Part shown: positions 358 to 25,707 of the stretch, piece after piece
How the letters are laid out: each line of letters begins with the position of its first letter
Numbering within the stretch: position 1 is the first letter of the stretch
DNA from: Chitinivibrionales bacterium
GTDB taxonomy: Bacteria > Fibrobacterota > Chitinivibrionia > Chitinivibrionales > WJKA01
NCBI GenBank assembly: GCA_038247415.1
Contig: JBBRUX010000043.1
Coordinates: 1-32,543 of the forward strand
Reading direction: 5' to 3'
DNA length: 32,543 nt
Program-made: the position numbers and the translations under genes
Notes under the pieces: generated by a model
Told to the model about the DNA's origin: nothing
Database searches by the model: none
The model's input: the letters and a program-made list of their open reading frames with translations, nothing else

Positions 358-1695
358 ATGAACTATACAATTGTGTTAATGCTTTTTCTATGCTTTGCAA
401 ATGTGCAAATAGCATGGGCTCAATCGGATACTCTTGCAACAGCAACTCCCAGTGGCGCTGCAGCAGCACGGGATAATCCCCGACTCAAAACACCTATTAC
501 CCTTGTTGCAAAAGACGCAAATTTGTCTGAAATCTTAAAGGTATTAGCCGATCGATCGGGCATGAATTTTGTGTCGGGGGAAGGGGTTTACAAAGAAAAG
601 GTTACTCTTGTTCTTAACAAAACTCCTCTTGATGAGGCAATTAATATAGTTGTTAGAGCGGTTGGGTTGTCCTACGAAATAATTGGCAACTCGGTTTTGG
701 TTGCAGAACCTGCAAAGCTTAAGGATGAAGTAGGACTATCGGGTTATGTAATAGATCTAAAATATGCTCCTGCCGCAGAAGTTGCTGCTATGCTTGCAGA
801 TTTGACAACCAAGGTAAAAGTTGACGAAGGCGGCAATCGCTTAGTGTGTTACACAAGCCCTCGTATTCTCGATGAAATATATAGAATTGTAAAGGCTGTT
901 GATCATCCTCATATTCTTGTTATGCTCGAAACGCGGCTTGTTGAAGTAAATGCAGATAATTTGCGCGCCTATGGTCTCGATTGGAATGCATTGTCCCCGG
1001 TTACGTCAAGCATAAGCTATCCGGCAACGCACCTTGCTCAGGGGATAAATTTTGATCAATGGACTCATTTACCTGTTAATTTTAATATTATTCTCGATCT
1101 TATGGCATCTAAAGGTGATGCAAAGATTCTTATGGATTCTAAACTCACAACAACCAATAATCGTGAAGCAAAACTAATGATTGGTGATGTTATACCCTAT
1201 ATTATTCAATCATATAACCTAACAACAGGCGGTGCTCCATCGCAGCAGATTCAAAAAGAGGAGGTGGGCGTAAAAATCACCATGACTCCTCATATCAACG
1301 AAGATAATCAGATCACCCTGGCACTTGCTCCAGAGGTGTCGTCGATTGTGGGGTATCGAGGTACCAATGCCGACCTGCCGCTTATTCGCGTTCGCAAGAC
1401 TCAAACAACGGTGCGGGTTGAAAGTGGGCAGACTGTTTTTTTAGCAGGGCTTTTGCAGGACGAGACAACTACCGAAATAAGAAAGCTGCCCATTCTTGGC
1501 GATTTGCCAATAATAGGATTCCCTTTTCAGCATAAAAAGACAATTACTAAAAGAACGAATTTAATTATTGAAATTACGCCGAGGATAATTACCGATCCAA
1601 AAGAAATTGCTTCACAAAAGCTAAGTATAGATTCTCTTAATGCAAAATCAAAGGCAATGGCAGAGCAGATTAAAATACCGTTATTGCTCAAATGA
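358..1695 (+). CDS. Secretin (PilQ/GspD family): signal peptide, STN/N0 domain, one N domain, secretin domain
   Basis: Signal peptide ending AWA-Q. 'ITLVAKDANLSEILKVLA...GMNFV' (N0), 'LKYAPAAEVA...DEGGNRLV' (N domain), 'GVKITMTPHI', 'KLPILGDLPIIGFPF...LIIEITPRII' (secretin). GGAG upstream. Confidence 0.92.
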   Translation: MNYTIVLMLFLCFANVQIAWAQSDTLATATPSGAAAARDNPRLKTPITLVAKDANLSEILKVLADRSGMNFVSGEGVYKEKVTLVLNKTPLDEAINIVVRAVGLSYEIIGNSVLVAEPAKLKDEVGLSGYVIDLKYAPAAEVAAMLADLTTKVKVDEGGNRLVCYTSPRILDEIYRIVKAVDHPHILVMLETRLVEVNADNLRAYGLDWNALSPVTSSISYPATHLAQGINFDQWTHLPVNFNIILDLMASKGDAKILMDSKLTTTNNREAKLMIGDVIPYIIQSYNLTTGGAPSQQIQKEEVGVKITMTPHINEDNQITLALAPEVSSIVGYRGTNADLPLIRVRKTQTTVRVESGQTVFLAGLLQDETTTEIRKLPILGDLPIIGFPFQHKKTITKRTNLIIEITPRIITDPKEIASQKLSIDSLNAKSKAMAEQIKIPLLLK

Positions 1696-2499
1696 GAGAA
1701 TTGCAGCTTCAACCGTCGGTTGGTGTTGAATTGAAGTGCCGATTACCATTTCTTTAAATGATTTAATGATGTGCGCTTGAAGGCCGGCAATTTTAACGAT
1801 TCCTTGGTGCTCTTTGAATGCAGACGTTGCCGTAACGATTTCTTCCCAACCTCCGCTTGTTATTGAGCTTACTGCTGTTGCATCGAGAATGACGCGTTTG
1901 GTTTTTCCATTTTTAAAGTAGGTAATCGCATCGGTAAATGTTTTTGAGGTTTGAGCAGAAAGCGTGCCGGTGAGTTTGAGAATAAGAATTTGGTCGTCAT
2001 GAAGTGGCCCATAGTCGGTGACGGTGCTGTTTTCGGAGGGTTGAACGATCGCCTTAAAGAGAATCGTTTCCCGGGAGCTTGCGCTGCTTTCGATAGGAAT
2101 AGAAAAATCGGCAAAAGGCGACTGCTCGTTTGGAACATCAACTGGTTCTATGAGCGGTGGTTGTGCAGTCTCAAAGGATGCTGTTGAAAAAGCGATTGTC
2201 TGATCGAGGGTAATGTCGCTTATAATAGTAAGCGTGTGCGTTCCAAGAATAAAAGAATCTGAGGTCTTAAGTGTTGCCTGGCTAATACGTTTACCTTGAA
2301 CTGCGGTTCCATTAAGTGTTTTAAGATCAGAAAGGAGCCAGCTTTCGTTTGCATAAGCCAGCGTCGCATGAAAGCGTGAGACTTTCGCATCGGAGATTAC
2401 TACCATATTGGTGCGGGCGCGGCCAATAGTGACAGGGTACTGCGAAAGGGTATACTTAACGGGATCTTTGCCACTGGTTGTAATAATGAGGTAATGCAT
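1681..2499 (-). CDS. FHA domain + STAS (anti-sigma factor antagonist) protein
   Basis: FHA motifs 'TIGR...VSRFHA...DLKTLNGT'. Acidic Pro/Thr linker. C-terminal STAS 'ILKLTGTL...RVILDATAVSSITSGGW...VKIAGLQAHI...TVEAAI'. Overlaps the secretin 3' end by 15 bp. Confidence 0.85.
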   Translation of the reverse strand: MHYLIITTSGKDPVKYTLSQYPVTIGRARTNMVVISDAKVSRFHATLAYANESWLLSDLKTLNGTAVQGKRISQATLKTSDSFILGTHTLTIISDITLDQTIAFSTASFETAQPPLIEPVDVPNEQSPFADFSIPIESSASSRETILFKAIVQPSENSTVTDYGPLHDDQILILKLTGTLSAQTSKTFTDAITYFKNGKTKRVILDATAVSSITSGGWEEIVTATSAFKEHQGIVKIAGLQAHIIKSFKEMVIGTSIQHQPTVEAAILSFEQ

Positions 2500-2594
2500 A
2501 AGAATTCCTTTTACTAAAAATATACGATCGTGAGCAACTCTGCCAGCGCAGAGGAAAATAAAAAAATGATTGGCATTGCAGCAAGGAGTATGGT

Positions 2595-3428
2595 ATGGAT
2601 CGAAGTTCGATTATCAAGCAGGTTGGTTTAAGCTCAGATGATAAGCGTTTGCAGCAGATTCCGTGGCAAAAAATAGAAAATGAAGCCGATGAATATGCAT
2701 CTCTTCTACTCGTGCTTTCCGAATATACAGAATCTATCGCAATGCGCTTACATCAGTTCAAGGCCGCGTGCGGGCACAAGGTACAAGTCTTAACTGTTAA
2801 TGAATTTATCGAGAAAAAGGTACTTGCGTTTCTTGATCAAACACAAATTATACATGAAACCTCTCTTGATGCGGCAGTTATAGACCTCTATTTTATTGAC
2901 AAAAACGCATTGCATTCCCTGCATCAGAATATTATCAAAACCTGGAATCTAACGCATGATCCTACCTTGATGTGCCCCGCGGCTGACCCCCTTGGATTTG
3001 CTAGCTTTGCAAAAGACATTGGAGCTGAAATCTTTCACCCTCGTGGGACACAAACCTATGTCGAATATACTTTGGAATCAAATCTCTATAAAGCGCCAAT
3101 GAAGGTAGTGGTACGTGCTCGTTCTTTGGGCGAAGTCTATTTAGCAGAAGTCAAACAATGCCTTGCCAAGAGAGAATATAGTGCCATGTCGGCAATCGTG
3201 CAGGCTGCAGCCCTGATGGGAGACGCACTTCATTCTTTCATAATGCAAACCCCACCAGTTTGCGAATCGAACACGCCTGTTGTGCAAAAGCCGGGCAAAG
3301 AGAGTGGGGTATTTCCCCGTAGTGTTACTGCCACAGCGCAAGCGGCAGTTTCCGAGAGCTTGGGATCTGATGATATGGCAGCAACAATGGCAATATCGAT
3401 GGAAACGTTTCGAGCTTCTAGAAAATGA
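2595..3428 (+). CDS. Hypothetical protein, first gene of the kinase/PilB operon
   Basis: 277-aa ORF with AAGGAG RBS, 12 bp before the kinase gene. No recognisable domain; low-complexity Thr-containing C-terminal tail. Confidence 0.75.
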   Translation: MDRSSIIKQVGLSSDDKRLQQIPWQKIENEADEYASLLLVLSEYTESIAMRLHQFKAACGHKVQVLTVNEFIEKKVLAFLDQTQIIHETSLDAAVIDLYFIDKNALHSLHQNIIKTWNLTHDPTLMCPAADPLGFASFAKDIGAEIFHPRGTQTYVEYTLESNLYKAPMKVVVRARSLGEVYLAEVKQCLAKREYSAMSAIVQAAALMGDALHSFIMQTPPVCESNTPVVQKPGKESGVFPRSVTATAQAAVSESLGSDDMAATMAISMETFRASRK

Positions 3429-3440
3429 TAGGAGGCCAGG

Positions 3441-4382
3441 ATGAATAGCAACGAACAAGCCCTCTATGGAGAATATCTGGGACGAACAATTGGTGGCGTA
3501 ACCATTGTGTCATTTATTGGTGCTGGGGCAACATCTGCAGTTTTTTCAGGATTTCAACGAACCCTCAAACGTCAAGTTGCTGTTAAAGTGCTTCCCAAGG
3601 CAACGAAGTCGGTTATTGCCAATCACGACCTCTTTATGCTAGAAGCAGAGCTTGTTGCTCAGCTTCATCATCAAAACATTGTACCAATTTACGAAATGGG
3701 TGAAGATGATCAGTGCTATTACCAGATTGTGCAATTAGTGTCCGGCGAAGATTTACAGCATTTAATGCAGCGAACATCAAAAAACCCGATCCCGCAACGA
3801 AAAAAGTTACCACTTAAGCACGTTATCGAATACCTTTCACAAGTTTTAGATGGCCTTGCATATGCGCATGCAGAAGGTGTGGTTCATAGAGATATTAAGC
3901 CCGGGAATATCCTCATCGACACTAAAAGCAACCGCCCGCTCATTACCGATTTTGGATTGGCAATTACCCGGTGGTCGCCACAAAAAACCAATAGTCAAAC
4001 CATAGAGGGATCTCCTTTGTATATGGCTCCGGAGTATGTGCGCGGCGCCGCTCCCACTGCGGGTTGCGATATTTACGCGACGGGAATCATCTTGTATCAA
4101 CTCATTGTAGGTGCCCTCCCTTTGACTCAGCGCGATCCTTTTAAGCTGCTACAAAAAAAATATGAACACCCCGAAGCGCTCTTTGATCTAACGCCGCGTC
4201 AGGTAGATCCCGCTATGCCTTTTGGGCTAGAACGAATTATCCAAAAAGCAATCGATATAAATCCTTTGCAGCGCTACCAGACGGCGCAGGAATTTAAAGC
4301 CGCATTGAGGACATTTGAAACTGAAATGCACACAACTGTCAATGCGGTAAGCGAGGTAGTGTATGCATACATCGGAAACTGA
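3441..4382 (+). CDS. Soluble Hanks-type Ser/Thr protein kinase
   Basis: GAGATSAV loop, VAVK, HRDIKPGN, DFG, GSPLYMAPE, DIYATG all intact. No TM segment. AGGAGG RBS. Confidence 0.95.
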   Translation: MNSNEQALYGEYLGRTIGGVTIVSFIGAGATSAVFSGFQRTLKRQVAVKVLPKATKSVIANHDLFMLEAELVAQLHHQNIVPIYEMGEDDQCYYQIVQLVSGEDLQHLMQRTSKNPIPQRKKLPLKHVIEYLSQVLDGLAYAHAEGVVHRDIKPGNILIDTKSNRPLITDFGLAITRWSPQKTNSQTIEGSPLYMAPEYVRGAAPTAGCDIYATGIILYQLIVGALPLTQRDPFKLLQKKYEHPEALFDLTPRQVDPAMPFGLERIIQKAIDINPLQRYQTAQEFKAALRTFETEMHTTVNAVSEVVYAYIGN

Positions 4383-6993
4383 AACCCTAACTCAGCAACA
4401 AGTCGACCTCCTCGTGCATAAACTGTGGGTAGCCTATAATGCCTATGCTATTTATGGACGTTCGCATCCGTTATCTCTTGAGGGTACCCATTCTTTTTAT
4501 ACAGTGCTCTCTGAACTTTTTTTGGCTCTTGCAGATATCACCATTCATTATGAGCAACAAATTTTGCTCTGTGAGCAATGGCGTGTGTCACCAAAATCAT
4601 TTGGGGTTCGTTTGGTATCCCGCCTGCGCGATGCCCATATATCGTCGCTTACGTTTAAGCGAGGGATTGAGTTTGTTGACTGCCGAGAAATACTACTTGC
4701 GCTGTGCGATGCTAAAAAATATCCTTCTGTCGATGATCTTACCCAGGCGCTTAATGAGAGTAGCGTCAAGGGATTCTTGTTTAATTACATTACCTATCAG
4801 AAAGTAACGCGTGATGAAAATGTGGTGGCTAAAAACATGTCATCGCTTGTTTCTTTGTTGCATCTGGATACCATTTCAAGCGCAGAATCTGTTCCTACGC
4901 AAGCGCGGCAGGCCGATGCGCTCAGTGGCACACCCGATTCTTCTTCATCCTTGCTTACCCGCATAAAAATATTGCGCGAAGAAATTGTTGCTCAAACTTT
5001 TACCCAACCGCTTTCGATAGAGGAGATTATCCAGACATTAGGAATATTACGTGAAAGTGTGCTCGAAGAAGTGCGTATGGCAATACATTCTGGTAATCAA
5101 ACAACTCAAATTGAAGTTGTGAGCGAGCTCGAAAAGCTTACCGAAGAAATTACCATTCGTATTGTGTGCGAAGAATTTCGCGCAGGAAATAAAGCACCAA
5201 CACGCCTTGCGCATATTACCATTAAATTGATTCCAGATCCCGATTCGCTCAAACGACTGCTTCCAAATCTGAAAGCTGCGCTTCTTAAAGAAGGTATGCC
5301 GCTTGTTGACTATTTCGCGTATGTAAAAGAGCTATCACTTATTGGAGAGAGCGATAGGCTCTCAGAGATTTTGGCCACGGCCTCAGAATCCGTTGGTGTA
5401 ACGGTTTCTGAATTACTCGATGAAATGCAACGAAATCCTGAAATCGCAGTCAAGCTTATCCTCTTATCATCAGAAATTCAATCGCTGCCGGGAAATTCAG
5501 AAGAGAAATTATCTGAAATGATTAGCGGATATATCAATTCAATGGGATCTGCGTTGTCTGGTTCCGGTAGCGATATGCAACAAAGCGAATCGCAATTATC
5601 AATAAGTTGGCTCAAATTTGAAGCAATGATGCTCGACAGTCTTACCGAAAAGAATCTTTCCGAAAAAAGTTTATCGCGCATTTCATCAGATTTATCGGGT
5701 ATTCAAATTCTAACAACGCTTGGAGAAAATAAGTTCGGAAATGGAGGGGACGAAACGACCGCTCCTGAGGTTTTGGTGCAGTACAAGGCGTCTACTTTTA
5801 TACCAGATACAGTCGGAAAAGAGGGGTTACCTGCTTCTGCAGGGTCAGTGTCTACTACTCTGCAATCGGAATTGGCTCCGCTTCTTGTATTGGCAGCACA
5901 AACCGGAGCACATCTTGGATCAGTTGACAAAGCCACTCAAAGTCTTGTGTGCACATATCTTGCCGAATTTTTGGCTACGGCTGCATCGAGTACCGATTTA
6001 CAGAAAGGTTCTCTCGAAGGTGGGACAGAGTTTGATGGTATGGTTAGCATTTTTGTTGATAACCTCGCCAAAGAGCTAGCGTCGCATGGCATCGAAGAAA
6101 GCCGTATCAGGGCATTGACAGATCATCTTGTGCATACTCTCACTAAACTCCGCCACGAGCAGAGCGGATTTTTTGATGAAGCTCCAAACCACAATTCTAT
6201 CAAAAAGGGTATTTCGCTTCAAAATGCATTTGTTTACCTGGCGCATCATACAAGCAAGGATTCAAAAAATTCCGAGATCGTGCTCCACAACCAAAACGGA
6301 TCGGGATCATTAGGAACGCTTGCCAGTGTCTTGACCTTTGCTGCTTCCATGGGGAGCACAATGCATCCCGTTGAGGCTAGTTCGTGGGATGCTATCCCCG
6401 CGCATGTTTGGAAGGAAGTTGCCGCTACAAATGAATCTTTAGATGCGAAAGTAGACGTTCGGCCTGCATCTAAGAATTCTATTCGCCAAGACCGAATCCA
6501 AATGCCAAAAATGGTTCAAAAATCTAAAGAGTTCCAGGTTGAAATTGATAGGGAAATTAAGCGACATCGGCGTTATCAGACCCCCTTTGCAGCCATTGGA
6601 CTAACGTATGTTATGACAGAAGGTGAATCTGAATTAAAAAGCGTTTCCGAAGACATAAGGGCATTACTCTTTCCCAAAGTTTCTGCCGTGATCGCCGATC
6701 ACTTTCGTGATTTAGATAAAGCAGGAATGCTTGGAACTACTGTGAGTGGAAATTTTTGTGTTCTGCTTCCCATGACTTCGCAAAGGGGTGCGACAATTGC
6801 GCATGAGAGGCTGTATCCCAGTTTGCAAGAGGTTAGTGCGCAAGCAATATCTGGTGTGTTCTGTAAACCGATAAGTGTGCTCGTTCTCTATGATGGGTCG
6901 ATTTCTCCCGATGCTGCATCGTTTACATCAGAAATAAAGAAAAAGCTCCGGGCAGGTATAAAAAAAGCTAACGCAAAGGTTAATCATGATTGA
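4363..6993 (+). CDS. Large helical protein with N-terminal 'YxxxHP' domain and C-terminal degenerate GGDEF domain
   Basis: N-terminal 'AIYGRSHP...ISSLTFKRGI' resembles N-domains of HD-GYP/HEAT proteins. C-terminal 'IDREIKRHRRYQTPFAAI...FRDLDKAGML...FCVLLPMT...GATIAHERL' is GGDEF-like but lacks GG(D/E)EF. GAGG RBS; overlaps both neighbours. Confidence 0.75.
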   Translation: MHTSETETLTQQQVDLLVHKLWVAYNAYAIYGRSHPLSLEGTHSFYTVLSELFLALADITIHYEQQILLCEQWRVSPKSFGVRLVSRLRDAHISSLTFKRGIEFVDCREILLALCDAKKYPSVDDLTQALNESSVKGFLFNYITYQKVTRDENVVAKNMSSLVSLLHLDTISSAESVPTQARQADALSGTPDSSSSLLTRIKILREEIVAQTFTQPLSIEEIIQTLGILRESVLEEVRMAIHSGNQTTQIEVVSELEKLTEEITIRIVCEEFRAGNKAPTRLAHITIKLIPDPDSLKRLLPNLKAALLKEGMPLVDYFAYVKELSLIGESDRLSEILATASESVGVTVSELLDEMQRNPEIAVKLILLSSEIQSLPGNSEEKLSEMISGYINSMGSALSGSGSDMQQSESQLSISWLKFEAMMLDSLTEKNLSEKSLSRISSDLSGIQILTTLGENKFGNGGDETTAPEVLVQYKASTFIPDTVGKEGLPASAGSVSTTLQSELAPLLVLAAQTGAHLGSVDKATQSLVCTYLAEFLATAASSTDLQKGSLEGGTEFDGMVSIFVDNLAKELASHGIEESRIRALTDHLVHTLTKLRHEQSGFFDEAPNHNSIKKGISLQNAFVYLAHHTSKDSKNSEIVLHNQNGSGSLGTLASVLTFAASMGSTMHPVEASSWDAIPAHVWKEVAATNESLDAKVDVRPASKNSIRQDRIQMPKMVQKSKEFQVEIDREIKRHRRYQTPFAAIGLTYVMTEGESELKSVSEDIRALLFPKVSAVIADHFRDLDKAGMLGTTVSGNFCVLLPMTSQRGATIAHERLYPSLQEVSAQAISGVFCKPISVLVLYDGSISPDAASFTSEIKKKLRAGIKKANAKVNHD

Positions 6994-9124
6994 TTTACAA
7001 ACTCATACAATGCCTAAAACAACGCTGTGCATTCTTACCCAGGTTCAAAGCAATGTTGGGCCAGTCGTTAAGCTTATTAATGCAACGGAATCGGGAGATC
7101 ATGTTTCGGTAACGCAAGGCATCCTAGGCGATACATTTACCGAGAGTCCCGAAATTGTAATCGCCGTGCATACAGCAGGCCATGATGTAAATGACTATTG
7201 CGAAAAGGTAAAAATACTTACATCCATGGCGATAACAAGCATTGTGATTGCAATGGTTCCAAAAGATTTCCCTCAAGAGCAGATAGATGATTCGCTTATA
7301 CTGTGTGTAGAACAAGTTCTTCGATACCCTATGCCTGGACCAGACTTTAGCAGGCATATCATGACCCATGTTGCATCTTTGCGCATAAAAATAGAACGCG
7401 AAAAATCTCTGACCGATCTAACGCGCAATCAGGTTCAGTTTGGTGAGTTGCTTGTAGAGAATCATATTATTTCTCCGGAACAGCTTGCACGTGCACTCGA
7501 CTATCAGAAGGGTGCCGATCAAAGGTTGGGAGACCTCTTAGTATTGCTTGGATTTATTACCGAAGAACAAAAAGTTCATTTTCTTTCGAGTCAATTATCT
7601 GTGGGTATTGCATCTGCTCGTCAGTATGCAGCCACAGACCTAGCTACGGTTTCTTTAATTCCCGAACATCTTGCTCGGCGATACACCTGTATTGCGCTTG
7701 AACGGCATGAAAAGAGGCTTCGTGTAGCCATGGTGGATGTGCTCGATTTGCATTTGCTCGATTCCTTGCGAGATACGACTAATTTGTCCATCGACCCTTT
7801 GCTTGGCATTAGCGATGATATCCAAAGAACTATCGATAGGTGCTACCAGGATATTGCTTCACAAAAAGACGCATCCATGCTCATTGCCGATCTTACCGAT
7901 TCTGTCGAATATGTAAAAAATGGTTCCGAAGAACTCAGTGCCGAGGAAGCTGCTGCAGCAGGTGCAGAGCTCGGGATTATCAAGCTAGTTAATTTACTGA
8001 TAGCACATGCAATACGAGACAGGGCAAGTGATATTCATATCGAACCTATGAGCGAGTCATTATCGATACGCTATCGAATCGATGGTGAATTGCATACAGT
8101 AATGTCTCCCCCTAAAAGATCGCACTCTGCAATATTAACAAGAATAAAAATATTGTCGGACTTAGACATTGCAGAACGGAGGCTTCCCCAAGATGGCCGT
8201 ATGGTAGCCAAAATAGGGAGTCGAGAGGTAGATATTCGGGTCTCTATTTTGCCAACAGTTTTTGGAGAAAAAGCGGTGCTTCGTATTCTCGATAAAGAAG
8301 CATTCGAAAAAAGTGTTGCAAATCTTGGGTTTTCGCATGATGATCAGCTTGTTTTTAAGAAGAATGTTGTAAAGCCGTATGGAATGATAATTGTAACAGG
8401 TCCCACAGGTTCTGGAAAATCAACAACTTTATATTCTGGCATACAATCGATAAAAAATGTAACACGAAATATCGTTACGGTGGAAGATCCTGTGGAATTT
8501 CATATCGAAGGGGTTAACCAGATTCAGGTTAACAACAAGATAGGATTGACTTTTGAAAGTGCCTTGCGCTCGATTTTGCGGCAAGATCCCGATGTTATCT
8601 TAATTGGCGAAATACGCGATGCTGAAACAGCCGATATTGCCGTTAAAATGGCACTTACCGGGCACCTTGTTTTTTCTACATTGCATACCAATGACGCAGC
8701 CAGTAGTATCGCCCGTTTTGTAGACATTGGTATTCCACCGCTCTTGCTTGCATCGTCGCTTAATCTTATTATTGCCCAACGGCTGGTTCGAAAGATATGC
8801 GCTAATTGTAAAGTTTCGTATACGCCAGAAGATGAATTGCTCGAACAACTAGATCTTATAAAGCATGCAGCACCTGTCTTTTATAAAGGCGAGGGTTGTG
8901 TACATTGTAATGGTATCGGCTATCTGGGTCGATGTGGCATATTTGAAATGATGCCCATCACAAAAGAGATTAGGACCCTCATTTTGCGTGGTGCACCATC
9001 TATGGATATTGCAGCAAGCGCAGAAGCTGCAGGCATGAAGACGCTGCGTCAAGCAGGAATTGATCTTGCTTTGCAAGGATTTACAACAATAGAACAAATT
9101 ATTGCTGCAACAACAGAACTGTAA
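6986..9124 (+). CDS. pilB: PilB/GspE-family assembly ATPase with N-terminal pseudo-receiver and MshEN domains
   Basis: ASDIHIEP, LDIAERRLPQDG, Walker A GPTGSGKST, TVEDPVE, LRQDPDVILIGEIRD, TGHLVFSTLHTN, and Zn-binding CANC/CVHC. Tandem MshEN-like motifs at about 7436-7597. Confidence 0.92.
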   Translation: MIDLQTHTMPKTTLCILTQVQSNVGPVVKLINATESGDHVSVTQGILGDTFTESPEIVIAVHTAGHDVNDYCEKVKILTSMAITSIVIAMVPKDFPQEQIDDSLILCVEQVLRYPMPGPDFSRHIMTHVASLRIKIEREKSLTDLTRNQVQFGELLVENHIISPEQLARALDYQKGADQRLGDLLVLLGFITEEQKVHFLSSQLSVGIASARQYAATDLATVSLIPEHLARRYTCIALERHEKRLRVAMVDVLDLHLLDSLRDTTNLSIDPLLGISDDIQRTIDRCYQDIASQKDASMLIADLTDSVEYVKNGSEELSAEEAAAAGAELGIIKLVNLLIAHAIRDRASDIHIEPMSESLSIRYRIDGELHTVMSPPKRSHSAILTRIKILSDLDIAERRLPQDGRMVAKIGSREVDIRVSILPTVFGEKAVLRILDKEAFEKSVANLGFSHDDQLVFKKNVVKPYGMIIVTGPTGSGKSTTLYSGIQSIKNVTRNIVTVEDPVEFHIEGVNQIQVNNKIGLTFESALRSILRQDPDVILIGEIRDAETADIAVKMALTGHLVFSTLHTNDAASSIARFVDIGIPPLLLASSLNLIIAQRLVRKICANCKVSYTPEDELLEQLDLIKHAAPVFYKGEGCVHCNGIGYLGRCGIFEMMPITKEIRTLILRGAPSMDIAASAEAAGMKTLRQAGIDLALQGFTTIEQIIAATTEL

Positions 9125-9136
9125 CAAGGAGAACGT

Positions 9137-9574
9137 ATGCGAAAAGTAACTATTCTACTATGTTTGGTGAGCGTGTTTTTGGTAGAGTGTCGGGACACGG
9201 GGAATGTGATTACTATAAAAAATATGGCAGAGGCATCAATGATTTTCTCATTTAGGGGTGAAGTTCATGATGTTGCATCGGGGGCTGATGTTTCCCTTAC
9301 GCACGTACCAAATGGAACTTATAATTACATGACCATTACAACTGTTCCTGCTGGAATGGACAAATGGACGCCCGATAAGAATTTGTCGGGAACTCTTTCT
9401 TTGTATAACAATATGACAACGGTATCAGTCATCTATACATCGATAGTTCAAATTGACTCGAGTGCAGCAGGAGCGGATACTTCATCGATACAGAAAACTA
9501 TCACAAAAACATATTCCGCTTACGCCACGGTAACGTCTTCGCATAGCGCATTGTCAAATTCAACTGTGCAGTAG
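9137..9574 (+). CDS. Putative lipoprotein (small beta-sandwich)
   Basis: AAGGAG RBS. Signal peptide MRKVTILLCLVSVFLVE-C with an atypical lipobox. Beta-rich Ser/Thr sequence. Confidence 0.7.
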   Translation: MRKVTILLCLVSVFLVECRDTGNVITIKNMAEASMIFSFRGEVHDVASGADVSLTHVPNGTYNYMTITTVPAGMDKWTPDKNLSGTLSLYNNMTTVSVIYTSIVQIDSSAAGADTSSIQKTITKTYSAYATVTSSHSALSNSTVQ

Positions 9575-10463
9575 TTTCCTACGGGCGGGCGGCCTATTCA
9601 CGCTATAAAAAAGTGCTTCCTCGCTCAATTTTGAGGTTGGCTAAAAGCTTCGGAAATGATGCCCTCCAAAGGCTGTACCGAATAAATTGCGCTCATTTTG
9701 TTCCGAGAATAGCAAGTTGTATATTCAATTTGTCTTCACATCGTAAGTATTATAAAAAATGACAGTCGCAAACTGGTTGTTCATGCTGCGTCTTTCTCAC
9801 GGATCGATATGGCCGGCGCACCACGAGCACCCCCAATTCGGGTATGCTATGGGAAACGAAATAGCCAACTGGTTTGGTTCCGTTTAAGGGATGTTTTGGT
9901 ATGCTATCGGTAAGTTTTTCCTATAGTAACGAGTTGTGCGAAATAAACTAGGCAAGAATGAATTATAGGCGCGCACGAAGAAATAGAGCACAAACAGAGT
10001 TTGCAATGCACCAAAGGACAAGCAAGGCGTTTTTAAAGGTATAGAATTAAAAAACGGAAAAATAACATTGATGTTTATTGGTATGGTACGGACAAGTTAG
10101 AATATCCAAAAAGCATTATGACAGACTTACTCAAACAACATGTTTACGATTATGGAAAATTACCAAAGTGGAATAAATAAAATATGTAGACACTTAAGCA
10201 ATACTTTAACAGTATACAACGGGCAACCCATAACAGCAAGTAGGGTTAGTCCAATTAAAAAACAAATTTATTCTCGTTATTCAAGATGATACTCTGCAAG
10301 AAAGAGCCTTCCTGAACAATCAGGAAACGACGAAACAGTATATATTTTAGATGTTTTATCGAGTGGAACAATATTGTACGTCGCACGATCAAGTTCAGAT
10401 AATAAAGGTGGGGCAGTGATTTACCAAAGGCATTTTATCGAGACGCAAGAAGTTAAACTAAAG

Positions 10464-11788
10464 TCACAGAGTTGCCGATGTGTTCTTTTTGGCTAGATAC
10501 ACATACATTGCCGGTACTATAAAGAGGCATACCCGCAGAAATTCGCTGGTTGGCAAATTCCACTATAAGAATACCATTTCTAGCAACAAGACCAATGAGC
10601 ATGATGATGCCTATTTGGGAAAAGATATTCATAGTCTGGTTGCAGTACCAGAGCGAAAAAAGCGCTCCGCTTAAGGCTAGGGGAACCGTGGCATTAAAAA
10701 TGATTCTGCTACGATCTTCGAGTGGAGCAAGTTCGGTTGGTAAAAGATTATAAAAAATTACAATGCCAATTAAAGCAATCCCCATTATAGGAAAGGCAAT
10801 CCATTTACGTTTAAGAAATGTTTGCAGTGCCCCTGTGTATCCAGCGATGCGACGTTCAAATAAATGTTTTCGAGTACTACAATTGCATTCTCAACCATAA
10901 GTCCTGTTCCAAGAACCAGAGCATTGTTTCTTCTACTTCGGTAATAGATTGACGAATGGTAGGGGTTACATCAAAAGCTGTTTTTAGTGTGATATCGGGG
11001 GGGGGGGGGGAGTTCTTTTTTTATTGCTGCAAGACGTTTATATGCTTCATTGGCAATGGCAATATAATTTGCACCAGGTTGCGGGGTAAGGCCAATGTCT
11101 ACCATGACTATTCCATCCATTTTCATTATTTGTCGAGAATTTTCAATGCCTTCGAGAGCTTCGCCAATATCTTTAAAACGCACTGGCTGTCCGTTTGTTC
11201 TGCGAATAATAAGATTGTTGAATTCATCAATTGATTGTATGCTGCTCATGGTTCTGATGGTCAATTCGGTCTGGAGACCTTCTACGGTACCTGAAGGCGT
11301 TCCTTTAAAACATCGTTGGCAAAATCGCTAAGCTGTGTGGGTGTTTTGGAATTGCTTTACAAAGAAATCATGATGATTGGTGATGAATTGGCGTCGGCTT
11401 TTGAAACAATGGGCGGGTCTGTATCTGTGGGGAGATTTCGTGTAGCGCGTGAAACCCTATCGCGTACATCATTTGCTGCTGCTTCGAGGTCGATGCCTAA
11501 ATTGAATTCTACCGTTATGGTGCTGCGTCCGTCGGCACTTGTGGAAGTAAGAGTCCGTATTCCTGATATGCCATTGACAGACTCTTCGAGGGGCTCGGTA
11601 ATTTTACTTTCGATAACAGCAGAATTGGCACCGGCATAGGAGGTTGAAACGGTAATTACCGGTGGATCGACTGCGGGGTAATCCCGAACACCCAGTGATT
11701 GAAATGAGAGTATGCCAAAGAGGACAATGACACTAGAAATAACAGTAGCCAGTACAGGACGGGTTATAAAGATAGACGAAAATTTCAT
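10464..11788 (-). pseudogene. AcrB/AcrD/AcrF-family RND permease pseudogene (internally deleted, nonsense, frameshifted)
   Basis: Colinear AcrB fragments: MKFSSIFITRPVLAT...DPPIVSKADA; KERLQ; PSGTVEG..ELTIRT; ITEVEET; AIVVLENIY; APLEDRS; VPLALSGA..GLVARNGILIVEFANQ; LFIVPAMY-stop. Only about 1.3 kb remains of a gene normally about 3.1 kb. In-frame TAA at 11357-11359. Confidence 0.9.
10997..11010 (+). repeat. G14 homopolymer (C14 on the RND coding strand) causing a frameshift
   Basis: gatatc-GGGGGGGGGGGGGG-agttc. The frame KKELP... resumes as DITLKTAFDVT only in a shifted frame. Confidence 0.9.
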
Positions 11789-11794
11789 CGCGCA

Positions 11795-11930
11795 CTGCAC
11801 CACCTTTGCCTGCCCCTTTTTTTGAAGGCATGCCTACCGTTGAATCTTTATGCCCAAACATTTTTGGAAGCGCAATGAGAGCTATAATGGCAAGAGCAAT
11901 AAGAATCCAGACTAATCGCTTGAATGTCAT
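11795..11930 (-). pseudogene. N-terminal remnant of the RND periplasmic adaptor (MFP) gene
   Basis: MTFKRLVWILIALAIIALIALPK...KKGAGKGGA matches the membrane anchor and Gly-rich linker of MFP subunits. It runs directly into the AcrB start; the rest is missing. Confidence 0.65.
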
Positions 11931-19170: not shown

Positions 19171-20214
19171 ATGGGATCTCGGGGCATGTCGTTTTTAGCT
19201 GGATTTAGGCCAATTAAGCTGTTTGATGCTTGCATGATGGCAGTGGGTATTCTTTGTATGAGCGCAACCGTCGCGGATGTTGCGCCGGGGTATCAAGCAC
19301 GAATAATCAAGCCAGGCGAAACGATTTCATTGCTCTGCATCGAATTGTATGGGCACTATGCTCCTTCTATGGGTGCTGCGCTTCAAAAAGCTAATCCGAC
19401 TCTTACCGATATCAATAAAATTACCCCCGGGCAAAAAATCCTCTTTAAAGATCCAGTACAGGCTCCTGTTAAGGCGCACCCAACTCCCGGAGTATCCACT
19501 CCAGGGAATCCTCCAGAAGAATCTTCCGTATTCGAAAAGCAATTGACCATTACACAGGGTGTTGTAACCTATTTGGAGGGTGAGGCAACTATTGTTGATA
19601 CTCACGGAAAAAAGGCCTCCCTCAAGGTCAATGCTCTGGTGTATCCAGGAGACATTATTCAAACCTCTAAATCTGGTCGCGTCGAAATAATAATCAACCG
19701 CGAAACGGTTGTCCGGATTAGAGAAAATACCAAAACATCCTTAGTTGCTTTTCGAACCAACGGTATAGATAAAGGTGCAACACGGGTAGGATTTTCTTCG
19801 GGAAGCGTATGGACAAAAATGAAGAAATTTGCGGATCGGGTAACACGATTTCAGCTTGAGCTTCCAACCGCCATAGCCGGGGTTCACGGTACGGTATATA
19901 ATGCGACTATTAATCGGGATAGTTCTTCGGCTGTTTCTGTGTATGAGGGTGAAGTAGCGGTTCAAAATGCTCCAGAAACCTATGAAAGTGGTCAGGTCCT
20001 CGAGGTTGCAGCCCCCGCAGAAGTAGCCGGGCCACACGAAGTATCACTTGACGAATGGGTTTACATTATTAAAGCAATGCAAACCATTGCCATCGATAAA
20101 CACGGCGTTGCCAAGAATCCCGAAACTTTTACAAAAAACGAAAATGATTCCTGGGTTGCTTTTAACGAAGAGCGCGATCGACAGGTGTCTGCAATCATAG
20201 ATGGAAAAGAATAA
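19171..20214 (+). CDS. Exported LysM + FecR domain protein
   Basis: Signal-like N-terminus. LysM 'IIKPGETISLLCIELYG...KANPTLTDINKITPGQKIL'. Pro-rich linker. FecR 'VTYLEGEATI..GDIIQT..GRVEI..VRIRENT..GSVW..LPTAIAGVHGT..VSVYEGEVAV'. Confidence 0.85.
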   Translation: MGSRGMSFLAGFRPIKLFDACMMAVGILCMSATVADVAPGYQARIIKPGETISLLCIELYGHYAPSMGAALQKANPTLTDINKITPGQKILFKDPVQAPVKAHPTPGVSTPGNPPEESSVFEKQLTITQGVVTYLEGEATIVDTHGKKASLKVNALVYPGDIIQTSKSGRVEIIINRETVVRIRENTKTSLVAFRTNGIDKGATRVGFSSGSVWTKMKKFADRVTRFQLELPTAIAGVHGTVYNATINRDSSSAVSVYEGEVAVQNAPETYESGQVLEVAAPAEVAGPHEVSLDEWVYIIKAMQTIAIDKHGVAKNPETFTKNENDSWVAFNEERDRQVSAIIDGKE

Positions 20215-22559
20215 TGGATATAAGGAAAATTAGCATTCTTGGTGTAGGAACGGTACTGCTCATTGGATCTAGTATCGTTTCGATGCTTATTGGAGCAGAA
20301 GATTTCTTTTACGGACTTAATTTTCTCTCAAGCAGAAAACCTACAACCGACGCCGTGGTGATTGTGGGTGTAGATCCTGCAAGTGTCAATGCCGTTGGCG
20401 GATGGCCGTGGTCCCGTTCGACGCTTGCAAATCTGTTTGAACGCATTCAACAGGCATCTCCAAAGGCTGTGGCTCTCGATTTGTTTTTTCCAAAACGAGA
20501 TGGTGTTGAGCAGAATGATAGCCTCGCACATGTGTTTTCCCGCATGCCGCATCTGGTGCTTCCATTTAGTTTTGGTATAGATCCGACAGTGCACAACGAG
20601 ATGCCCATAGATGTTTCCCCCCACCTTTATTCGAGCAGATTCCAGATGCTTGCAAACCCCAATGCGATGCAGGGAATCACAGTTTATCGGGCAATTTCTG
20701 CATCTGCTCCGGATAGTCAATTTCTGATACATGCGGCGCGAAGTGGCTTCATGAATGTCCCTACACGCAAAAATGGCCAAGTGCTGCGCGAGGTGATCCA
20801 TGTTGTTCAAATTAACGATGATTACTATCCAAGCTTTGGTTTGGCTGCGCTTGCAGCGTATCGTGACTTAGGTCCCACATCGTTTACACTTGATGGAGCT
20901 GGCACAGTGCACGTCGGGAACCTTGATGTCCCTTTAAGTTCGTATGCAGCCTCTACGCGGGTCAACTTTCGCGGCAGGGCAGGTACTATTAAAACCGTGT
21001 CGGCAGGAGATGTTCTACGGGGCGCCATCGATCCATCGGTATTTGCGCAGAAGCTTGTTTTTGTAGGTATCACCGATCCTGGAGCGGGAGTCGATGTTTT
21101 TGCCACTCCTGTTGGCCCGCAGTTTCCCGGGGTAGAGGTATGGGCCAATGCTGTTCTTGATATTTTAGAAAAAACACCCGTGCGCAGTGGCGGCATTTTT
21201 GAAATACTCATGTGGTGTCTCGCATTTTTTATTTTCCCGGGTTTGGCCTTTATTCTTCCTGCTAAAAAAAATATTCTTGCCGTAATCGTAAGCGCAGGAT
21301 TGTGCATCTGTGCGGTAGGCGGATCGTTGGCATTGTTTCGTATGGTATCGTCTTTTGTCAATCCTATGCCCGTACTCATTGCTTGGGTTTTTGGGGTTTG
21401 CTGGCTCGCGCTCAGTAGAATCAAACCAGAGCTTGTTGCCGGTTCTGCTAACCTCTGCTTTGAATCTGATTCCTTAGCAATGCTCGAAGTGTTGCCCCCT
21501 CCCAGCGAAAATGATTTTTGTAAAGTAATCCCTCAAACCGATACGGCGCACTTTGTTGTTAAAAAATTAACTGCCCAAAACCACTTTGCAGTTGTGGCTG
21601 CTCACGATTCTACCATGGTAGAAACCAATACGGCTGCGCTGCAAGCTTCCGAGAGCGCTCTATTGGCTGCGTTTGGTGATCTTTGCAATGGGAGAATTAT
21701 AAAGCTTTTAGGGAGTGGCGGCATGGCAGATGTGTATCTGATTTGGAATGCTCGTATGGAAGTGTATCGGGCCGTTAAAGTTGTTAAGCCAGAGCAGTCA
21801 GAATCTGTTATGAGCCGCTTCGAAACAGAAATTCGTATCCTTGCGCATATGAATCATCCTCATATTGTTCAAAGCTATGCTGTTATGCAATGGCATTCGC
21901 TTCCCTGTATTGAAATGGAATATGTCAATGGCATATCGCTTGATGAAGTATTAACTCGCTGCAAAGTGTTGTCTGCACCGCAGGTTATTGCAATAGGGAT
22001 TTTGGTATGTAAAGCATTATCGTATGCGCATCGTCATTCGGTAACCCTCTATGGCACGGTATACAAAGGCGTAATCCATCGAGATCTAAAACCTGCCAAT
22101 ATCATGTTATCACGCACGGGGCACATTAAGCTTACCGATTTTGGCATAGCGCGGCCTAATGAGGTTAGTTTGCATACCGGAGAATCACAATCTATTGTTG
22201 GAACAATTCCTTATCTTGCGCCCGAGCAAGTCGATGGAATTTCTATCACCCACCGTGCTGATATTTATGCACTGGGTGTAACCTTATACGAATTGGTGTG
22301 TGGGGAACGTGCTTTGCCCCAAAAGGATCTTACATCCCTTTTGCAGGCAAAAACAACCGGTACCATCAAACCTCTTCCTACAAGCCTTGTTCCTCCGCTT
22401 TTGTCCGATGTGATACATAAAGCTGTTGCAGTAGATCCTGAACATCGGTATGCTACGGCGCTGGATATGGAACAAGCACTCACAAAAGTGTGGACGCAAT
22501 TTATTAAAGAACCAAGTGAAACAGTTTTAGAAAAACTTGTTAGACGGGTATGGAACTAA
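20214..22559 (+). CDS. CHASE2 sensor - 3 TM - Ser/Thr protein kinase
   Basis: CHASE2 'VVIVGVD..GGWPWSRS..AVALDLFF..KLVFVG..FATPVG..PGVEVWAN'. Three hydrophobic helices. Kinase GSGGMADV, AVK, HRDLKPAN, DFG, GTIPYLAPE, DIYALG. TAATG overlap with the upstream gene. Confidence 0.92.
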   Translation: MDIRKISILGVGTVLLIGSSIVSMLIGAEDFFYGLNFLSSRKPTTDAVVIVGVDPASVNAVGGWPWSRSTLANLFERIQQASPKAVALDLFFPKRDGVEQNDSLAHVFSRMPHLVLPFSFGIDPTVHNEMPIDVSPHLYSSRFQMLANPNAMQGITVYRAISASAPDSQFLIHAARSGFMNVPTRKNGQVLREVIHVVQINDDYYPSFGLAALAAYRDLGPTSFTLDGAGTVHVGNLDVPLSSYAASTRVNFRGRAGTIKTVSAGDVLRGAIDPSVFAQKLVFVGITDPGAGVDVFATPVGPQFPGVEVWANAVLDILEKTPVRSGGIFEILMWCLAFFIFPGLAFILPAKKNILAVIVSAGLCICAVGGSLALFRMVSSFVNPMPVLIAWVFGVCWLALSRIKPELVAGSANLCFESDSLAMLEVLPPPSENDFCKVIPQTDTAHFVVKKLTAQNHFAVVAAHDSTMVETNTAALQASESALLAAFGDLCNGRIIKLLGSGGMADVYLIWNARMEVYRAVKVVKPEQSESVMSRFETEIRILAHMNHPHIVQSYAVMQWHSLPCIEMEYVNGISLDEVLTRCKVLSAPQVIAIGILVCKALSYAHRHSVTLYGTVYKGVIHRDLKPANIMLSRTGHIKLTDFGIARPNEVSLHTGESQSIVGTIPYLAPEQVDGISITHRADIYALGVTLYELVCGERALPQKDLTSLLQAKTTGTIKPLPTSLVPPLLSDVIHKAVAVDPEHRYATALDMEQALTKVWTQFIKEPSETVLEKLVRRVWN

Positions 22560-25203: not shown

Positions 25204-25347
25204 ATAGGCAGTTTGTTGAGACACGTGATATCGTGAGCGTGCGATGTAAAAAGGAAGTCATGCTAGAAAGGCAAGATATTCTGTGCCTAGCAAATGTCCT
25301 TGCATGAGATTAATTTAAATAAAAAGCGGAGTTTAGCTCAAAAGCAT

Positions 25348-25707
25348 GTCGCTGTTGAAAGTGCTGTTGCGATACTTGAAACTGTAGGGTTCAAATCAGA
25401 GCGTTTCGAATGGTCAATTAATTTTAAAGGTGCATCAAAAGTCAGTATTCAAATAAGTACTGAAGATTTTTATAAAGATTTTCCAAGTAGATCTGTTCCT
25501 GCGGATGTACATGGGATTCTCATGCGAGTTGCATCTCTTGAAGATACTTTACAAGGAAAAGTTGAAGCTTGGAAAGATAAAAATATGAGGCAAAGTAAAA
25601 AGATAAAAGATCTCGCTGATGTAGCTCGACTGGTCGAAAGCCATCCACACTTGTGGAGTATTTTGGATAAGGAGCTTCAAGCTTTAATAGAAAAGCCTTG
25701 CCAATAA
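25348..25707 (+). pseudogene. N-terminally truncated nucleotidyltransferase (AbiEii-like/stand-alone NTase family)
   Basis: 'GFKSERFEWSINF..IQISTE..VASLEDTLQGK..W..RQSKKIKDLADVARL' is the C-terminal part of this family. The N-terminal GG..A / DxD catalytic region is absent, and the first about 18 aa of the ORF from 25294 look unrelated. Confidence 0.6.

Follow-up and report, generated by a model that had tools for sequence, protein, structure and literature searches.

The surface switching of pilus extension is detailed for a few proteobacteria only and runs there via cyclic di-GMP (c-di-GMP) receptors such as FimX and MshEN (PMC11656802). The same source presents FimX as a large protein that binds c-di-GMP, contains a degenerate GGDEF domain and promotes pilus assembly via PilB; its receiver domain lacks the phospho-acceptor Asp (PMC11656802). 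Here, we analyse a stretch of 32,543 nt, contig JBBRUX010000043.1 of a Chitinivibrionales bacterium, a metagenome-assembled genome of the phylum Fibrobacterota. This whole stretch, which begins at contig base 1, is called the window (contig C43 of genome G000). Between a secretin gene and the extension-motor gene pilB, it carries two conserved signalling pairs, one of a Ser/Thr kinase and an 876-aa protein with a degenerate GGDEF domain, and the other of an FHA-STAS protein and a 277-aa protein of a family named hypX here.

The FimX-PilB system of Pseudomonas aeruginosa and the FimX-PilZ-PilB system of Xanthomonas are the nearest working analogue, as the 876-aa protein also has a degenerate GGDEF domain and is linked to PilB. 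However, FimX is a REC-PAS-GGDEF-EAL protein that binds c-di-GMP at EAL, whereas the 876-aa protein is without REC, PAS and EAL by Pfam and in its structure model, and has instead a putative GGDEF inhibitory site (I-site) and an unclassified N-terminal domain. The 876-aa protein is not a FimX because both the architecture and the binding site differ. Moreover, the probable pseudo-receiver is on PilB itself here but on FimX in the other system, and the Hanks kinase partner found here has no counterpart in the FimX system as the accessible text describes it (PMC11656802).

The 876-aa family follows the same logic as PelD, PopA, CdgA and SgmT, in which the cyclase motif is lost and the RxxD is kept for c-di-GMP. 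SgmT, PopA and CdgA are reportedly I-site receptors with degenerate GGDEF domains. Unlike such receptors, the 876-aa protein is without a GAF/transmembrane, REC or histidine-kinase part, has a Ser/Thr kinase for partner, and belongs to a family with one clade linked to pilB. As to the motor, the window PilB resembles the known c-di-GMP-binding MshE/PilB ATPases in its MshEN match but differs from them by a pseudo-receiver-like part ahead of MshEN and by a first MshEN half-motif that departs from the Arg/Gly consensus.

On the phosphorylation side, the threonine phosphorylation pathway of type VI secretion consists of a Hanks kinase (PpkA), a phosphatase (PppA) and an FHA protein (Fha1), encoded next to a machine that spans the envelope and whose assembly they probably gate after translation. 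The likeness is in a Hanks kinase and an FHA gene by an envelope machine. Here, however, the kinase is without a membrane or periplasmic sensor, STAS is part of the FHA protein, the neighbouring genes include no PppA-type phosphatase and the machine is a pilus. ArnA (FHA) and ArnB with the kinases ArnC and ArnD in Sulfolobus likewise bring FHA and Ser/Thr phosphorylation together with a type IV filament, the archaellum. The Arn system is archaeal and acts mainly on expression.

Against the solved FHA domains, the window FHA matches ArnA (5a8i, 1.2e-4) and DgcB (6hc0/6hc1, about 3e-3). DgcB of Bdellovibrio joins FHA to an active GGDEF cyclase (PMC6733907), whereas the FHA and GGDEF-like domains are on separate proteins here and the latter appears inactive. 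A literature search, with most subscription journals outside its coverage, found no Ser/Thr kinase and degenerate-GGDEF pair at pilB, no FHA-STAS fusion at a pilus cluster and no receiver-like PilB extension. The terms 'FHA', 'receiver' and 'N-terminal extension' do not occur in the accessible part of PMC11656802.

Results

Linkage of the kinase and GGDEF-like genes to pilB

The kinase and degenerate-GGDEF pair is linked to PilB beyond chance. Of 41 related genomes, 33 carry the 876-aa family, frequently with more than one paralog, and a paralog is also on contig C33 of the window's own genome. We fetched 30 other loci of the family and mapped the window proteins onto them; genomes of relatives, loci and taxonomic families are labelled G, L and f, respectively. 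A kinase 38–51% identical to the window's is directly upstream in 20 of the 28 determinable loci, two more being cut by contig ends. No kinase fusion is found among 19 long representatives of the family. An N-extended PilB adjoins five of the 30 loci (L023, L024, L025, L026 and L028).

The linked loci belong together in phylogeny. A maximum-likelihood tree was built on the N-terminal 450 residues with 30 rows, L122 being dropped with its best segment under 250 residues. The window and the five PilB-linked loci all fall in one 8-row clade (ultrafast bootstrap 100, SH-like approximate likelihood ratio test 99), and none of the 22 rows outside it is PilB-linked. The linked loci span families f1, f8 and f2. 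The order is kinase, GGDEF-like and PilB in f1 and, as far as a short contig shows, in f8, and it is PilB, kinase and GGDEF-like, after secretin and PilT, in G015. The linkage of the pair to PilB recurs in one clade, in two orders and across three families; the full gene order is not conserved.

The kinase is of the Hanks type. Pfam Pkinase (5e-48) fills residues 22–282 of 313, which is the ground for reading it as kinase domain only and as putatively soluble, and the VAVK (K49), HRD, DFG and APE motifs are all readable. Among the 16 kinases beside family members, K49, E68, H149, D151, K153, N156 and D170-F-G are invariant. Most of them (14 of 16) have HQD instead of HRD and are non-RD kinases, while HRD is found in the window's and one other. 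A KNPxPxKR insert after the hinge is conserved in all the kinases beside family members.

The 876-aa protein

By single-sequence search, the 876-aa protein has no match in Pfam, NCBIfam or the PDB. Its family makes up 224 representative clusters at E<1e-30 in a library of 1.84 billion proteins, mostly of 700–750 aa. Nine public records of the family include three named 'hypothetical protein' and one 'GGDEF domain-containing protein', the rest being without a name. In the phylum sample, full-length matches occur in Chitinivibrionales families and in f15 and f17, with genome G194 included in the f15 tally; the matches in f10 are generic C-terminal GGDEF matches only.

The family profile, searched against the PDB, finds GGDEF structures with 3ign the best at 3.2e-12. 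A 60-sequence alignment of about 22% mean identity has invariant columns only at H35, S95, N141, G345, R782, D785 and R816. In the profile alignment, 'RdlD' of the family coincides with RQSD, the I-site of the c-di-GMP-bound 3ign, and R816 with the Arg of its 'CERIR'. R782, D785 and R816 fit the pattern of I-site receptors, an RxxD five residues ahead of the former GGDEF motif and a second Arg on the next helix; R816 would correspond to R390 of PleD. The GGEEF of 3ign falls on the family consensus 'eenil' after a 3-residue insertion, and the window stretch reads GTTVSGNFCV. The GG(D/E)EF active-site motif is absent, so the protein is not classed as a cyclase.

The AF2 model has a predicted local distance difference test score (pLDDT) of 75.6 and consists of four parts. 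They are a very confident alpha/beta N-domain at 10–143, a helical part at about 195–450, a low-confidence variable linker at 454–710 and a confident C-domain at about 712–870. In the VIA comparison, the C-domain reaches Z 17.0 with 5llw_B at a root-mean-square deviation (rmsd) of 2.3 over 142 residues, and the top 23 rows are all GGDEF structures; the GGDEF of FimX gives Z 15.5 and PelD gives Z 9.8. Foldseek gives TMt 0.70 to 3ign. Such whole-model searches are dominated by the GGDEF and helical parts, not the N-domain, and the N-domain (residues 1–150) finds unnamed clusters only in the ESM Atlas.

From the alignment and the model, the C-domain is predicted to have the GGDEF fold, its active site being dead and its inhibitory site kept, which is the signature of PelD-type c-di-GMP receptors. 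The degenerate GGDEF that had been read from the sequence is thereby upheld by both profile and model, in spite of no Pfam match. Because the cyclase site is lost while the RxxD and the second Arg are kept, the 876-aa protein is most likely a c-di-GMP receptor, not an enzyme. The gene downstream of one unlinked paralog overlaps it by 4 bp and encodes an intact REC-GAF-GGDEF diguanylate cyclase (GGDEF 1e-49; L123 1716–3185). The window genome has 10 GGDEF matches elsewhere and, by this gene content, can make c-di-GMP.

The linker varies in the family. In the PilB-linked clade it contains, at alignment columns of about 560–900, two to four copies of a helical motif of about 35 residues, L..kG[FY]s..q[IV]..f..La.ei...[IV]G. 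The paralogs of about 720 aa have a single copy. In this part of the protein, RecX_HTH1 is weakly matched in 5 of 60 members.

PilB and its N-terminal extension

The motor is a PilB-type ATPase. Pfam finds T2SSE (6e-134) and MshEN (1.6e-14), and the PDB matches are PilB 5zfr (1.1e-153, over residues 151–709) and the MshE N-domain 5htl (6.7e-18). It is identified as PilB, yet its TIGR02538 score of 598.4 bits is below the equivalog cut-off of 675.65. Its parts are a pseudo-receiver-like extension at about 10–140, MshEN at about 150–290 and the ATPase at 331–706, with the Walker A GPTGSGKS and the four Cys of the Zn site, C605, C608, C638 and C641, invariant. The MshEN consensus of Wang et al. 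2016 is reportedly two tandem 24-residue motifs, RLGxx(L/V/I)(L/V/I)xxG and so on. The second of the two half-motifs here, RLGDLLVLLGFITEEQKVHFLSSQ, is complete against this consensus. Residues 152–203 match NF053729, the NCBIfam c-di-GMP motif model, with 63.2 bits, above its cut-off of 38.

The N-extension (first 145 residues) is found in 14 of the 81 genomes of the order sample, which is the window genome and 80 others, always in frames of 699–772 aa. Its model is (beta-alpha)5, five strands alternating with helices. All 50 matches listed by VIA are receivers or CheY-like, one being a fusion construct, and they include the pseudo-receivers of CpaE/TadZ; the best is 3cfy (Z 8.4, rmsd 3.5 over 110 residues). 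By sequence profile, the best match is the second receiver of PleD at E 0.09.

An alignment of 11 N-extensions follows the strand and helix rhythm of receivers but conserves none of the phospho-acceptor Asp after strand 3, the acidic pair after strand 1, the Thr/Ser after strand 4 and the Lys ahead of the Pro after strand 5. In the window protein, strand 3 is followed by Thr and the Pro is preceded by Tyr; L, M, T or I occur in relatives. Pfam Response_reg matches none of the 11. We call the extension a pseudo-receiver, with moderate confidence and at the level of the predicted fold, because it has the receiver fold but does not conserve the phospho-acceptor residues, as had been proposed for this PilB. 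A 977-aa frame antisense to the PilB gene of G046 (L061 5254–8187, + strand) is almost certainly spurious.

The FHA-STAS and hypX pair

FHA (2.8e-15) and STAS (1.5e-8; 34.8 bits against a cut-off of 22.6) are both found by Pfam in the FHA-STAS protein, which scores 27.9 bits with TIGR00377, under its cut-off of 53.45. The phosphothreonine-binding residues of FHA are intact at IGRA, SRFHA and NGT, as aligned to the Rv1747, EmbR, ArnA and DgcB structures. Full-length relatives are found at nine places in six other genomes, in f1 and f8 only, and elsewhere the FHA part alone matches. At five of the nine places, a 380–486-aa protein without a Pfam match is divergent from FHA-STAS.

The alignment of these five proteins matches the window 277-aa protein with a probability of 91.3% (hhalign; E 9.6e-7 over 196 columns). 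This profile comparison overturns the view of the 277-aa gene as an orphan, to which a single-sequence search had pointed with no match in the 80 other genomes. Counting the window, 6 of the 10 full-length FHA-STAS loci have the divergent pair with hypX, three are without it and one is cut. The protein first labelled hypothetical is a member of a conserved family.

The hypX proteins probably have a degenerate RelA/SpoT-like fold with a short tail. Pfam matches none of the six and the five-protein profile finds nothing relevant in the PDB. In the ESM Atlas, the relative at L099:7523–8806 matches RelA_SpoT clusters at a feature score of 0.90 with 193 shared and at structure TM-scores of 0.77/0.82 over 186 residues. 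The RelA/SpoT domain of small alarmone synthetases (PF04607) has a nucleotidyltransferase fold and the catalytic motifs RxKxxxS, DxxGxR and ExQxRT, and the corresponding stretches of hypX look degenerate by eye against these motifs. We considered hypX and FHA-STAS as a toxin-antitoxin or defence pair with a toxic alarmone synthetase and set it aside for the stable chromosomal pilus and polysaccharide contexts and the degenerate look of the catalytic stretches.

Each of the six hypX tails contains one or more [DE]x(1-4)-T-x-[FYA]-[ILMV] motifs. The acidic tail of the window protein reads DDMAATMAI and its G002 counterpart reads DDLAATMAV. Many FHA domains prefer an aliphatic residue three positions after phosphothreonine. 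The tail threonine motifs would suit this preference, and hypX is likely a ligand of FHA-STAS, as judged by these motifs.

The contexts of FHA-STAS vary. The order of FHA-STAS, divergent hypX and kinase recurs in G019. In G002, FHA-STAS is just past PilB on the opposite strand, and in G004 a second copy and a secretin fragment, some 0.5 kb apart, converge. Because these contexts extend from secretin and PilB to export genes, the FHA-STAS/hypX pair goes with envelope machines generally, not with pili alone. Beside FHA-STAS copies are also TPR-GT41 genes, which are O-GlcNAc-transferase-like (L099 11928–16295, L102 11364–13463 and L104 2173–6738). O-GlcNAc-transferase-like enzymes modify Ser/Thr, and such modification may compete with or complement the phosphorylation.

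The pilus cluster and neighbouring genes

The window is the far end of a pilM-N-O-P-Q cluster, because PilM, PilN and PilO are at the start of another contig and the C-terminal part of a PilP-like protein is at window base 5. The former three point outwards within the initial 2.3 kb of this other contig (C1), which belongs to the window's genome, and end about 220 bases from its start; C1 (reverse strand) and C43 probably abut. The latter fragment is 42% identical by tblastn to residues 74–176 of a 183-aa L056 gene that lies between PilO and the secretin, and it has a weak GspC_delta match (E 0.0067).

The secretin has Pfam Secretin (3.2e-43), Secretin_N and STN, and is 62% identical to the secretins of the relatives' pilMNOPQ clusters. 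In NCBIfam, it matches PilQ (TIGR02515, 1.9e-51) and GspD (3.5e-55), both under the equivalog cut-offs. Six relatives' loci (L056, L059, L061, L062, L063 and L067) have the order of PilP-like, secretin, PilT-like and N-extended PilB, and Pfam confirms PilM and PilO in L056. In the window, the four signalling genes are in the place that pilT occupies in these six, and the genome's best match to pilT lies beside pilC on contig C12. The pilM-N-O-P-Q context and the relatives' PilT-containing order argue for a type IVa pilus, not a type II secretion system.

The locus has seven open reading frames within 358–9574, of the secretin, FHA-STAS, 277-aa, kinase, 876-aa, PilB and 145-aa proteins (Table 1). 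The layout is exactly as first read, with the 95-bp gap between the divergent FHA-STAS (-) and operon (+) genes and with overlaps at 4363–4382 (20 bp, kinase/876-aa) and 6986–6993 (8 bp, 876-aa/PilB); the two remaining operon junctions are 12 bp each. The first domain calls are likewise confirmed by Pfam, run on 20 window proteins, and NCBIfam for the secretin, FHA-STAS, Ser/Thr kinase and MshEN PilB. The 8-bp overlap with pilB suggests translational coupling of the 876-aa gene.

Table 1. Features of the pilus and signalling locus in the window and of the related export operons
Feature	Coordinates	Strand	Evidence or remark
PilP-like alignment protein, C-terminal part, truncated by contig start	2..319	+	tblastn and weak GspC_delta
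Secretin, PilQ-type, 445 aa	358..1695	+	Pfam Secretin
FHA-STAS protein, 272 aa	1681..2499	-	Pfam FHA, STAS; convergent with secretin, 15-bp overlap
Divergent intergenic region, 95 bp	2500..2594	.	AAGGAG 8 nt ahead of ATG at 2595
277-aa hypX family member	2595..3428	+	hhalign to family alignment
Hanks-type Ser/Thr kinase, 313 aa, kinase domain only	3441..4382	+	Pfam Pkinase
876-aa protein, predicted degenerate GGDEF at C-terminus	4363..6993	+	profile and AF2 model
PilB-type extension ATPase, 712 aa	6986..9124	+	Pfam T2SSE, MshEN
145-aa protein, hydrophobic N-terminus	9137..9574	+	without Pfam or NCBIfam match
hypX-headed export operon, FHA-STAS divergent (relatives)	L099 2840-8806 and L103 229-6305	.	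gene order in G004 and G006

The 145-aa gene is doubtful as part of the unit. Its product, first read as a lipoprotein, has Cys18 near the hydrophobic N-terminus and a lipobox that is non-canonical by eye, and a 229-aa relative (35% identity) adjoins one other PilB-linked locus, L025. The promoter and terminator scan of the region gives about as many sites as its shuffles (25 vs 21.4 and 9 vs 9.6). Positions 1681–9574 or parts of them are contained in six DNA metagenome runs, and no RNA run containing them is listed. A word-based homologue search yielded two relatives only, and a search with a 4-sequence alignment gave two loci that were both in hand from the other searches.

Farther along the window is a second Ser/Thr module on the + strand, at 19171–24232 with junction overlaps of 1 and 10 bp. 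It consists of a FecR-domain protein (19171–20214), a Hanks kinase with a CHASE2 sensor (20214–22559) and an FHA-SLT lytic transglycosylase fusion (22550–24232). Two pieces on the - strand, 10453–10785 and 11357–11803, match the C-terminal (profile 894–947) and N-terminal (2–140) ends of AcrB-type RND transporters and appear to be what is left of an efflux pump gene that is broken or has large deletions. Of the AbiEii nucleotidyltransferase toxin model, only the central part (profile 85–173 of 238) is matched by a 137-aa frame at 25294–25707, which is probably a fragment.

Discussion

The locus forms the distal end of a type IVa pilus cluster, with two conserved signalling pairs between the secretin and extension-motor genes. 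The original prediction read the genes divergent from FHA-STAS as one tightly packed operon of five; the order is not kept across the Chitinivibrionales, and what is conserved is a pair of genes in two separate instances instead of a single operon. The cassette is nonetheless a real, lineage-restricted regulatory unit, for which we infer the mechanism. We give a probability of about one half to the cassette being a functional regulator of this pilus.

The gene content suggests that pilus extension could be controlled by protein phosphorylation together with c-di-GMP. In such control, the kinase would phosphorylate the Thr motifs on the hypX tail, and perhaps also the linker of the GGDEF-like protein. 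FHA-STAS would read the phosphorylated motifs, while the GGDEF-like protein would bind c-di-GMP at its I-site and report the c-di-GMP level. The ensemble would then set the activity or the placement of PilB at the secretin complex and control the pilus extension. PilB may bind c-di-GMP also by its own MshEN. Each binding or phosphorylation step, as well as the direction of control, is drawn from sequence and gene order and is much less probable than the regulation as such.

Of the switch first envisaged from phosphothreonine, STAS partner switching and c-di-GMP, the kinase and GGDEF pair linked to PilB stands, and the c-di-GMP link is plausible on two proteins by their predicted sites, the I-site of the 876-aa protein and the MshEN motif of PilB. 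The partner switching is without support: STAS is present, but none of the 20 window proteins scanned is an anti-sigma-type kinase or a PP2C phosphatase, and the genome's four SpoIIE-type genes lie elsewhere, on contigs C6, C9, C19 and C28.

A fuller reading joins all these parts. The 876-aa family, with its unclassified N-domain and I-site-only GGDEF, would be a new c-di-GMP receptor family and a fixed partner of the kinase-domain-only, mostly non-RD Hanks kinase, one clade of it being recruited to the type IVa motor. The c-di-GMP and Thr phosphorylation signals would be integrated on PilB via the pseudo-receiver, and a dead alarmone-synthetase-like protein would be the phosphorylated dock of the FHA-STAS adaptor at the secretin. 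Taken whole, this combination is clearly unlikely. If true, it would be a three-layer post-translational switch of a type IV filament that has no described counterpart.

Several observations weigh against control of the pilus by the cassette, beginning with the pairings themselves. No kinase is found at 8 of the 28 determinable family loci, and the clade members G013 and G007 have the kinase but no PilB neighbour. All the linked cases are in three related families and hence are not independent events. Near the cassette there is neither a phosphatase nor a partner-switching kinase. The other 13 genomes with an N-extended PilB include five with the pair beside PilB and two cut by contig ends, while the cassette is missing from six (G070, G007, G046, G044, G041 and G043), or 6 of 11 determinable; therefore, the pseudo-receiver is not cassette-specific.

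The molecular assignments have their own adverse points. The first MshEN half-motif has Q (S in four relatives) for the consensus Arg, and H, S or N for Gly. For the N-extension, Foldseek finds nothing at E≤0.001, the best being CheY at E 0.03, and its model has a pLDDT of only 67.5. The weak point of hypX is that its RelA/SpoT link comes from a language-model and predicted-structure look-up of one relative, joined to the window protein by hhalign.

Much of this would fit a somewhat unlikely alternative, in which the signalling pairs are general-purpose modules for another envelope process, such as exopolysaccharide export or surface remodelling for chitin attachment, and stand beside pilB by shared ancestry in a few related families, the motor not being their target. 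With the window included, PilB is not next to 25 of the 31 family loci, which have varied contexts of an ABC transporter, glycoside hydrolases, histidine kinases and TPR proteins, and the linkage is restricted to f1, f2 and f8 as well as missing at the majority of N-extended PilB loci. The FHA-STAS family is not pilus-specific, with other copies beside Wza/Wzz-type export genes. In G004 and G006, FHA-STAS/hypX heads an operon of a small TPR protein, a 323-aa STAS protein, Poly_export (Wza-like), GNVR/Wzz and a ParA-like ATPase, and a phosphothreonine/STAS control of polysaccharide export is possible there, as far as the gene order suggests.

The alternative of general modules explains less well that the PilB linkage is kept in three families despite the changed gene order and that 6 of 6 linked loci are in one well-supported clade. 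The overlap of the GGDEF-like gene with pilB, suggestive of translational coupling, and the placement of FHA-STAS beside the secretin in two genomes and beside PilB in a third also speak for the motor as the target. We keep the cassette as a candidate regulator of this pilus at the even odds given above.

A second alternative concerns the 876-aa protein alone. It could be a scaffold or the main kinase substrate with no c-di-GMP sensing, and its RxxD and Arg could be kept for fold stability or another ligand. Even weak GGDEF scores are found in only 17 of 60 members, the largest and best-conserved part is the unclassified N-domain with the helical region, and the c-di-GMP reading is predicted from sequence and model. 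However, R782, D785 and R816 are three of just seven columns invariant in 60 sequences and align exactly with the I-site of a c-di-GMP-bound structure, PelD_GGDEF, the model of such a receptor, matches 10 of 60, and one paralog is coupled to an active cyclase. This alternative is quite improbable and the receptor remains the preferred reading of the 876-aa protein.

The ATPase and secretin could even belong to a type II secretion system, with the cassette controlling the secretion of proteins such as chitinases, as the GspE score (571 bits against 598 for PilB), the GspD score near that of PilQ, all under equivalog cut-offs, and the weak GspC match of the upstream fragment would allow, but this is very improbable with PilM, PilN and PilO in the cluster, a PilT-like retraction ATPase between secretin and PilB in relatives, and PilB at full length as the best solved match.

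In summary, the locus would be a variation on known kinds of pilus control, centred on an unnamed family of candidate receptors, in an uncultured relative of chitin degraders. Type IV pili are thought to aid the attachment of Fibrobacterota to cellulose and chitin (PMC4704652). What this locus adds is a populated unnamed family of proteins with an invariant putative c-di-GMP I-site and a usual Ser/Thr kinase neighbour, a clade of it tied to pilB, and a second conserved pair of FHA-STAS and a RelA/SpoT-like protein beside the machinery of pili and of polysaccharide export. Should these links be functional, eukaryote-like phosphorylation and c-di-GMP would be joined on one motor, with concrete residues to mutate. 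If they are not, the 876-aa family would still be a new candidate c-di-GMP receptor.

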